Source of the DNA: a virus
Taxonomy: Duplodnaviria > Heunggongvirae > Uroviricota > Caudoviricetes
Direction: 5' to 3' (one strand)
DNA length: 11,065 nucleotides
Virus record (IMG/VR): IMGVR_UViG_2660238078_000006
Shown in pieces: positions 1 to 3,000 of this stretch; position 1 is the stretch's first letter; every line of letters begins with the position of its first letter. Made by a program: the position numbers.

Positions 1-3000
1 TCAGGGAAAAATATCATCAGATGGCTGCTTAAAAAAGAACAAATGGTAGTGTCCGCTATTGCCAGTACACCTCAAAGAGAGTAAATCAAACCGCGCAATT
101 GGCGTTGCGCTGAATGATACTGCATGTCGCGTATTGAAAAAACAAATCGGAAATCATCACCGTTGGGTATTTGTGTACAAGGAAAGCTGTACCAAACCAG
201 ACGGAACGAAAGCGCCAACAGTAAGGAAGATGCGGTATGACGCAAACACAGCCTGGAAAGCGGCGCTGAGACGGGCTGGTATTGATGATTTCAGATTTCA
301 CGACTTGAGACACACCTGGGCAAGTTGGCTGGTTCAAGCCGGAGTCCCGTTATCAGTGTTACAGGAAATGGGAGGCTGGGAGTCTATCGAAATGGTTCGT
401 CGATATGCTCACCTCGCACCTAATCACCTTACCGAACACGCACGGCAAATAGACTTGATTCTGAACCCATCGGTCCCAAATTTGTCCCAGTCAAGAAATA
501 AGGAAGGTACTAATGATGTGTAACTTATTGATTTAAATGGTGCCGATAATAGGAGTCGAACCTACGACCTTCGCATTACGAATCTGTAGCACCAATCATA
601 ACTATCTGTTTTAGCAAGCATTAACCGCATTCACTAAGATATAGTTGATGGCACAAACAGAAAGTTGATGAATGATGTTGCCATATATATGTCACAAATA
701 CGGCACAACGATCTTCAAACATATAGCCACACATTCACAGAAGAGCACAAAGCCTTGCAATCCAGTGCAAAGATTTGTGTGCCAGAGTTTTTCTCATCAA
801 CTACCGCAAGTATCGATCGATTGAGACTTGGATGATAGACTTCATGCCTTTGATTATTAGCTGATAGAAGAAATGTTAAAGCTATTTGCAAAGTACACAT
901 CTATAGGCGTGCTGAACACACTTATACACTGGGTGGTTTTTGGTGTATGTATCTATGCCGCGCATACCAATCAGGCTATGGCAAACTTCGCAGGTTTCGT
1001 TGTGGCTGTGAGTTTTAGCTTCTTTGCGAATGCAAAATTCACATTCAAAGCATCAACTACAACGATGCGCTACATGTTATATGTCGGGTTCATGGGAACA
1101 CTGAGTGCTACTGTTGGATGGGTTGCTGATAGATGTTCACTTCCTCCAATTGTCACTCTTGTTACCTTCTCCGCCATCAGCTTGGTGTGCGGTTTCGTCT
1201 ATTCAAAGTTCATTGTCTTTAGGGATGCGAAATGAAGATATCTCTTGTCGTTCCTGTCTTCAATGAAGAAGAAGCGATACCAATTTTTTATAAAACGGTA
1301 CGTGAATTCGAAGAGTTGAAGCCATATGAAGTAGAAATTGTTTTCATAAATGACGGAAGCAAAGACGCTACGGAGTCAATCATTAACGCTCTGGCTGTTT
1401 CTGATCCGCTAGTTGTTCCGCTGTCATTTACACGCAACTTTGGTAAAGAACCAGCATTGTTTGCAGGGTTAGACCATACAACCGGCGATGCCGTGATTCC
1501 AATTGATGTTGACCTGCAAGACCCGATTGAGGTTATTCCTCATCTTATTGAAAAGTGGCAGGCAGGTGCTGACATGGTGCTTGCTAAACGTTCAGACCGC
1601 TCAACTGATGGACGGCTGAAACGTAAGACAGCTGAGTGGTTCTATAAATTACACAACAAAATAAGCACCCCAAAAATAGAGGAAAATGTCGGAGATTTTC
1701 GACTCATGTCTCGTGAGGTTGTGGAGAACATTAAACTATTGCCTGAGCGCAATCTTTTCATGAAAGGCATACTGAGCTGGGTTGGTGGTCAGACAGATGT
1801 CGTTGAATATGTACGCACAGAGCGTGTTGCTGGCATCTCAAAATTTAATGGCTGGAAATTATGGAATCTGGCACTGGAAGGTATCACAAGTTTTTCAACC
1901 TTTCCTCTTCGCGTATGGACTTATATAGGCTTGTTTGTTGCAAGCATTTCATTTTTATATGGTGCATGGATGATTATAGACACCATTGTCTTTGGTAACC
2001 CAGTACGCGGGTATCCCTCCATGCTTGTATCAATACTTTTCCTGGGTGGAGTGCAACTGATCGGGATTGGTGTTCTCGGTGAATATATAGGTAGAATTTA
2101 TTTAGAAACAAAATCAAGACCACGGTACTTAATTAAAAGCAGAAAATAACAGGATGATCTTATGAAGATATTCATAATGCGCAATTGGCACAAGATATCA
2201 ATTTTTATACTTGCATTTACTTTGATTTGGCTTAGGCGCATTGACATTTTGACAAATGCCCAGTTTTGGGCTGAGGATGCAGTTTTTTGGTATAAAGATG
2301 CATACGAACAAGGTTTTTTCAGTTCACTCATAACCCCAAGAAATGGTTATTTTCAAACAGTATCAACACTCATTGTTGGTGCGACGACATTTATTAATCC
2401 AATTTACGCACCATTATTATCAAACTTTTTTGGAATAATAATTAGAGCTATAATTATATGGTTCTTATTTACCGATAGATTTAAATTCCTAAGCACCACA
2501 TCAAAAATCTTCATCTCTGTATATTTAATTTGCATGCCCGGGCTTGATGAAGTCCAAGCCAATATAACAAATGCTCACTGGTATTTATCATTGTATGTTG
2601 CAATGATAATAATATCTGAAGAATCCAAGTCAAAATTATGGAAAGCACATGATTTATTTTTTATAGTATTATCTGGATTGAGCGGTCCATTTATTATATT
2701 CATAATTGCATCATCTGTTTTTAAATATTTACACTTATCAAAAGGAGTAATAAGCATAAGAGGTTTATACTTATTTTATACTCGACTGCCATATTTGGCA
2801 ATGATCTTGTGTGGGCTGATACAGGCAACATCAATAATTCTTACATTTAATGGAACAAGATCACATGCTCCATTAGGATTCAGTTTTGATGTTATGTCAT
2901 CTATAATATCATCTAATGTATTTCTTTTTTCATTTGTCCCTTGGAATATCGCTAATGCTGGATGGGATAATCACCTTTTATCGTACACACTATCAACTTT

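Follow-up and report, generated by a model that had tools for sequence, protein, structure and literature searches.

The window (here the whole 11,065-nucleotide stretch of viral DNA analysed, IMG/VR record IMGVR_UViG_2660238078_000006) opens on a tyrosine integrase gene with a broken reading frame, which raises the question of what disrupted the gene and to which element it belongs. The conserved motifs HDLRH and RRYAH both fall in frame 2, which terminates with a TAA at 521-523 in a translation of positions 1-525. Frame translation bears out two points of the initial annotation, namely an in-frame TAG at 47-49 that interrupts the integrase frame and a frame 1 that is free of stops from the first base until a TAA at 82-84. 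These had been taken to indicate a frameshift or nonsense lesion in a defective, non-excisable prophage or, failing that, a sequencing error. We find instead that bases 1-74 are almost certainly the end of an IS600 copy located in the integrase of an old prophage at thrW, a relic that now adjoins the attR of phage SfX. The features of the left edge are:

1 to 74, plus strand: right-hand end of IS600 (IS3 family), IS bases 1191-1264, from the nucleotide match to annotated IS600; it ends ...ACACCTCA
up to the TAA at 30-32, frame 3, plus strand: last codons and stop of the IS600 transposase orfB (the annotated transposase CDS in record L003 ends at the equivalent of window position 32)
48 to 74, plus strand: right 27-bp terminal inverted repeat of IS600, from the 1264-bp element delimited in L003, which ends ...GTGTCCGCTATTGCCAGTACACCTCA
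59 to 523, plus strand: hybrid open reading frame of 154 codons reported by gene callers, with a TTG start in the IS600 inverted repeat
75 to 77, plus strand: right copy of the target-site duplication AAG, both copies of which are present in L004 and L005
75 to 523, plus strand: 3' remnant of a tyrosine integrase of the SfI/SfII/SfIV/SfV type, codons 225-372 and the stop at 521-523, with 98-99% nucleotide identity to the Sf-phage int genes from base 75

Positions 1-80 match sequences annotated as "IS3-like element IS600 family transposase" in 2889 of 5426 complete E. coli genomes at 96-99% identity, with copies on chromosomes and plasmids and up to 43 of them per genome. Bases 1-74 are 97-100% identical to IS600 right ends (100% to the copy in L010) and had no match among phage records, unlike positions 75-583, which are 98-99% identical to the int genes and attP cores of Shigella phages SfIV, SfI, SfV, and SfII and Escherichia phage phi458. 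The right end terminates in ...CA, and an alignment of GTGTCCGCTATTGCCAGTACACCTCA (48-74) with the left end TGAGGTAGCCTGAGTTTAACGGACACT of the copies in L003 and L005 pairs 19 of 27 bases in inverse orientation, an imperfect terminal inverted repeat of the 5'-TG...CA-3' form whose left member lies outside the window. In relatives, the copies at this junction are 99.6% identical to IS600 over 1264 bp and are matched by Pfam HTH_Tnp_1 and rve (the DDE domain); the orfA/orfB "programmed frameshift" is annotated in related IS600 copies only. The window thus shares with IS600 the right-end sequence, the ...CA terminus and, in its relatives, a 3-bp target duplication, and differs in holding only the terminal 74 bases, with the last 10 transposase codons and the stop.

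The true coding frame of positions 1-32 is frame 3, which encodes the transposase C terminus ...REKYHQMAA followed by the TAA at 30-32. The "different frame" open from base 1 is IS600 sequence and not upstream integrase. Its 27 stop-free codons would be expected by chance in about 27% of cases, (61/64)^27, and its openness is uninformative because of this chance level and because the stretch is not integrase sequence. Similarly, the TAG at 47-49 is located at the inner edge of the IS600 inverted repeat and is simply where the integrase frame, traced back into that repeat, first runs into a stop. At the breakpoint itself, an intact gene reads ...AAC CCA GAA GAG AGT AAA... and the window reads ...ACCTCA/AAGAGAGTAAA..., with the slash at 74/75. 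Judging from these alignments, the apparent frameshift is the IS600/integrase junction at 74/75, between integrase codons 224 and 225. The proposal of a defective integrase therefore stands as regards the disruption, which is real, and fails as regards its cause, which is this junction and not an indel, a nonsense mutation, or a base-call error. The estimate of about 200 missing N-terminal residues was also close, the intact relative having 224 ahead of the break.

A scan of genome contigs for the exact junction string gave matches in SfX-free chromosomes only, those of S. flexneri SFBU1023 (L005) and of ECMA0423, which is labelled E. coli (L004). Window positions 1-583 are identical to L005. 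Both chromosomes carry a complete 1264-bp IS600 (99.6%) between integrase residues 1-224 and 221-372, with a left junction ...cccggaag/TGAGG and a right junction ...CCTCA/aagagag, so that AAG flanks the element on both sides; the intact gene has a single AAG and the window shows only the right copy. When IS600 and one AAG are deleted from L004 or L005, a 1119-nt open reading frame of 372 codons with only the terminal stop is recovered. Control deletions taking 2 or 4 extra bases produced 8-9 stops, and taking 0 extra bases left the frame open but with an added glutamate codon, none of them giving the intact 372-codon frame. A 3-bp target duplication is usual for IS3-family elements, and the pattern has all the appearance of a textbook insertion of this family.

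What is left of the integrase is not a working recombinase because its N-terminal 224 residues are absent, and the initial annotation was right that the gene is disrupted here and non-functional. The remnant matches only positions 57-171 of the 172 in the Pfam profile PF00589, while in an intact 372-aa relative residues 169-340 cover profile positions 1-171. In tyrosine recombinases, box I carries the first catalytic arginine (Arg I); in the intact relative this box (ATGLRRSN) occupies residues 195-202, upstream of the break, and it is missing from the remnant. From the set of Arg I, HxxR box II, and tyrosine that makes a complete catalytic domain, HDLRH and RRYAH are kept and box I is gone. 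The arm-type and core-type DNA-binding regions (~170 residues) precede residue 225 and are likewise absent from the window. The integrases of SfI, SfII, SfIV, and SfV and intact homologues in E. coli prophages (e.g., WP_001132557.1) share with the remnant 98-99% nucleotide identity over 75-583 and the thrW core; however, all these genes are complete, with 372-387 codons, and the remnant consists of codons 225-372, without Arg I and both DNA-binding regions. It is a dead pseudogene because the DNA-binding N-terminal half and the first catalytic arginine have been lost.

The hybrid open reading frame joins 16 IS-derived codons (one of them shared with the integrase) to the remnant. A consensus scan of positions 1-900 found no sigma-70-like promoter able to drive it. 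It seems very improbable that this frame is expressed from the TTG at 59 and that a fragment with box II and the tyrosine interferes with, or biases, the integration and excision of thrW-specific serotype-converting phages; if it did, the hybrid might help to account for the order-of-infection constraints reported for SfX and SfI. The identity of the 154-aa sequence across all the strains examined would be explained just as well by clonal descent.

On the other side of the remnant lies a serotype-converting prophage, SfX (group 7,8 antigen). Its features in the window are:

538 to 583, minus strand: 46-bp att core, the 3' part of tRNA-Thr(CGU) thrW, at the SfX attR junction; reverse complement of the published core ATTCGTAATGCGAAGGTCGTAGGTTCGACTCCTATTATCGGCACCA
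584 to 872, plus strand: phage arm of attR (P arm of the SfX attP) and the region upstream of gtrA, from the match to the published attR and attP
873 to 3427, plus strand: O-antigen glucosylation cluster of phage SfX (gtrA-gtrB-gtrX)
873 to 1235, plus strand: gtrA (Pfam GtrA_DPMS_TM)
1232 to 2149, plus strand: gtrB (Pfam Glycos_transf_2)
2162 to 3427, plus strand: gtrX, 421 aa, from the nucleotide match to SfX
3494 to 5254, minus strand: P22-type tailspike of the SfX prophage (Pfam Head_binding, E = 1.3e-62)

Beyond the tailspike there are an HNH gene, mnt, and then homologues of P22 gp16, gp20, and gp7, the window coming to its end within the virion genes of SfX. We assign the prophage to SfX because positions 2156-3883 are 100% identical to L05001.1, the glucosyl transferase of Shigella phage SfX. 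When the reverse complement of 506-887 is aligned with the attR published for lysogen 036_X, 377 of 378 bases agree, and the alignment has small gaps that seem to stem from mistakes in the text of the PDF. The stretch also matches the attP of SfX. The window therefore contains an SfX attR, in which the thrW core at 538-583 separates host DNA from the P arm and gtrA. ARAGORN found no tRNA in the window, the only tRNA-like stretch being the 46-bp core, an incomplete tRNA; in L005, L019, L023, and L025, the position of the core runs on into an intact thrW.

In the assembly collection, 76 blocks encode the identical 154-aa product, and in 19 of these the contigs exceed 1 Mb. Ten further complete genomes with the identical reading frame reproduce window positions 1-583 with 0-1 mismatch; five of them have a full-length IS600 (one with an additional insertion) and the integrase N terminus, and the other five have IS600 bases 80-1264 only. 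The records differ in what precedes the remnant and in what adjoins it on the att side:

upstream variant (a), full-length IS600 preceded by integrase residues 1-224 and an excisionase-like gene: L004, L005, L006, L016, L019, L022, L023, and L020 (IS600 with an additional insertion)
upstream variant (b), IS600 bases 80-1264 with no N-terminal integrase within reach: L011 (same record as L018), L017, L021, L024 (CP001383, strain 2002017), L025
att side, intact thrW: L005, L019, L023, L025
att side, same phage arm and then gtrX: L006, L011, L021, L024
att side, same phage arm and then another gtr gene: L017
att side, same phage arm and then an acyltransferase: L016, L020
att side, something else: L022

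No recovered record is identical to the window. The closest, CP020339.1, is 99.99% identical over 10.3 kb, differs by one homopolymer base and a run of Ns, and belongs to variant (b), with the order yaiC, 95 bp, IS629 (about 5427-6729), IS600 bases 80-1264, and integrase remnant; the N-terminal part of the integrase was not found within 7.8 kb upstream. Its IS600 copy, in which the first 79 bases are missing, is unable to transpose. The window starts only 74 bases inside IS600, and the genome from which it derives presumably has the CP020339.1 structure upstream.

To which phage the broken integrase belonged can be decided with the help of Sun et al. (2011, BMC Microbiol 11:269; PMC3306764), who sequenced the junctions of experimental SfX lysogens. 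In the parts of that paper that describe these junctions, the uninfected serotype Y host 036 has thrW followed directly by a "putative phage int," the attR of the lysogen runs gtrA, P arm, core, and "putative phage int," and the SfX attP (Additional file 1) has as its neighbour intX, with a different 3' end. The legend of their Fig. 2 counts IS600, IS629, and the putative int, together with proA and yaiC, among the conserved host genes. The 3' end of the host 036 gene (...GGTACTAATGATGTGTAACTTATTG...) is that of the window integrase. The truncated gene is a host-resident relic and not the integrase of the SfX prophage, because it has the 3' end of the 036 relic and sits beside thrW in SfX-free strains, whereas intX differs and, in L009, L012, and L014, lies at the far end. 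SfX intX is also a tyrosine integrase and has in common with the relic the thrW core and the last bases before it, but it differs in its 3' end, in its position at the opposite end of the prophage, and at the protein level, where the two types are 55% identical.

The reading that fares best against this one is that the truncated gene is SfX's own integrase and that SfX is locked in, unable to excise. The free phage genome has int, attP, and gtrA adjacent, as in the window, and L010 and L013 carry a fragment of the SfX-type integrase at this very position. However, the 3' end in the window is that of the uninfected host and not that of intX; the remnant is found beside intact thrW in prophage-free strains (L005, L019, L023, and L025) and beside the modification genes of other phages (L016, L017, and L020); and in L009, L012, and L014, the intX-type end adjoins thrW-proA, at the other end of the prophage. 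We consider this alternative very unlikely. The idea of a non-excisable prophage does not follow from the broken gene, because the remnant is not SfX's and SfX has an integrase of its own, seen at the other prophage end in L009, L012, and L014; the remnant is uninformative about the ability of SfX to excise.

Two other arrangements were also considered for the order of int, core, and gtrA, namely a free-phage (attP) configuration and a junction between two prophages of the same type. Both were discarded, the published attB, attP, and attR showing a host relic and a different SfX integrase.

It is extremely unlikely that the break arose in sequencing or assembly, whether through a miscalled base or through a chimeric join at a repeated IS. 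IS copies are classic sites of misassembly, and the 78-base run of Ns elsewhere in the window implies that the source was masked or not fully finished. Against this, at least 15 records of complete genomes, assembled independently and almost all from S. flexneri, have exactly this junction, and a proper 3-bp target duplication is present where both ends of IS600 are available; PMC3306764 also arrived separately at the order IS629, IS600, int, and att when the proA-yaiC region was amplified by PCR and sequenced. Finally, a contiguous integrase gene with a small indel or nonsense mutation near 40-90 and its N-terminal part upstream in another frame has a negligible probability: the integrase frame does have stops and another frame is open, but nucleotide homology stops exactly at base 75, bases 1-74 are IS600, and no frame of 1-74 resembles the integrase preceding this point in intact relatives (...LEWQQIDMQRRVAWINPE). 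The three-frame comparison with an intact integrase that had been suggested for locating the indel was run on 1-525; the ...QQIDMQRRVAWINPE of intact relatives has no counterpart in any frame, and there is no indel to locate.

Returning to the IS600 insertion in a host relic, the locus may have been built up in the following steps. A phage of the SfI/SfII/SfIV/SfV type would have integrated at thrW, and IS600 would then have transposed into the integrase of this old prophage between codons 224 and 225, duplicating AAG. The IS600-integrase block is now fixed in the S. flexneri chromosome, where it lies between thrW and yaiC, and most S. flexneri have the old integrase gene beside this tRNA-Thr attachment site. 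In the closest lineage, an IS629-associated event would then have deleted the first 79 bases of IS600, integrase codons 1-224, and whatever else was left of the old prophage up to yaiC. SfX, using its own integrase, would have integrated at the still-functional thrW, setting its gtrA-gtrB-gtrX end (attR) against the relic. This order (IS600 first, the IS629 deletion second, and SfX last) would be the most economical reading of the variants, and for the last step the loss of SfX from some lineages rather than its gain in others fits the data equally well.

All the components (IS600, an Sf-type integrase, the thrW core, and the SfX attR) are known, and their arrangement has already been published. 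As far as they are presented in PMC3306764, the S. flexneri thrW-yaiC host block "putative phage int - IS600 - IS629" and the attR of the SfX lysogen have the same integrase 3' end, core, P arm, and gtrA start as the window, and the flanking elements of CP020339.1 are the same as those of that block, with no substantive difference. Strain 2002017 (CP001383, L024), cited in that paper, has the identical 154-aa reading frame and junction. The portion of the paper dealing with the locus draws the elements without spelling out the breakpoint at codons 224/225 or the AAG duplication, and the SfI genome paper (PMC3636060) makes no mention of IS600. The feature itself brings no new biology. Its consequences concern annotation: many S. 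flexneri genomes are annotated with this 154-aa "integrase," which is IS600 sequence fused to a fragment of a pseudogene and must not be used to gauge the mobility of the neighbouring SfX, whose own integrase is expected at its other end. More generally, a seeming frameshift at the edge of a window can be an IS junction, and in the thrW-yaiC region of S. flexneri successive phage integrations and IS-mediated decay have left their traces layer upon layer.

Several minor observations were made in the recovered records. In S. flexneri L010 and L013 (about 6740-8362), the intX-type fragment adjoins the core and gtrABX and is cut at about residue 252 by a complete IS600, an independent insertion that hit another integrase of this locus in a configuration resembling attP. 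An intact relic-type integrase directly precedes the same core and arm in L007 (7199-8362), L002 (5340-6458), and L001 (5331-6449). After the intact relic-type integrase, core, and arm, gtrABC and a P22-type tailspike come next in S. flexneri CP055138.1 and E. coli GF66.2, where no tRNA lies close by, and the combination of int, core, and positions 584-638 is common to 51 E. coli genomes. These intact copies probably reflect tandem prophages at thrW. In L004, thrW (4223-4297) is one base short in the anticodon loop, CGCATTAGAATGCG versus CGCATTACGAATGCG, and ARAGORN reports an undetermined tRNA; the missing base is either a sequencing error or a damaged tRNA. With a size of 4.44 Mb and the S. 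flexneri junction, this chromosome (ECMA0423) may be a mislabelled Shigella.

The run of 78 Ns in the window (10279-10356) falls in the P22 gp7-like ejection-protein gene (minus strand), where CP020339.1 has 10 bases (GCAGGTCTGC); it represents a gap in the assembly or masked sequence rather than a true insertion, and it splits the gp7-like reading frame in mechanical lists of open reading frames. The homopolymer difference lies in the tailspike (4076-4088, minus strand), with 7 Cs in the window, where the gene is intact, and 8 in CP020339.1. The tailspike is frameshifted or split in CP020339.1 (169 aa called) and in CP001383 (197 and 384 aa), from either a sequencing error in those records or real slippage.

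Other differences among SfX copies affect gene content. Between the tailspike and mnt, positions 5267-5806 of the window encode an HNH endonuclease (HNH_3, with a weak AP2 match) that is present in the SfX copies of L006, L010, L011, L013, L021, and L024 and absent from those of L007, L008, L009, L012, L014, and L015, behaving like a mobile homing-endonuclease insertion. Positions 8316-9069, which cover the 5' end of the gp16-like gene and the 3' part of the gp20-like gene, have no megablast match in the SfX copy of L006, otherwise 96-99% identical, and are only about 87% identical in L010 and L013, a pattern suggesting that the ejection-protein module is mosaic among SfX prophages. In L008, L009, L012, and L015 (about 8395-8399), the right end of an IS600 (bases 181-1264) meets the equivalent of window position ~556, inside the 46-bp core, and the attR of SfX is destroyed there.
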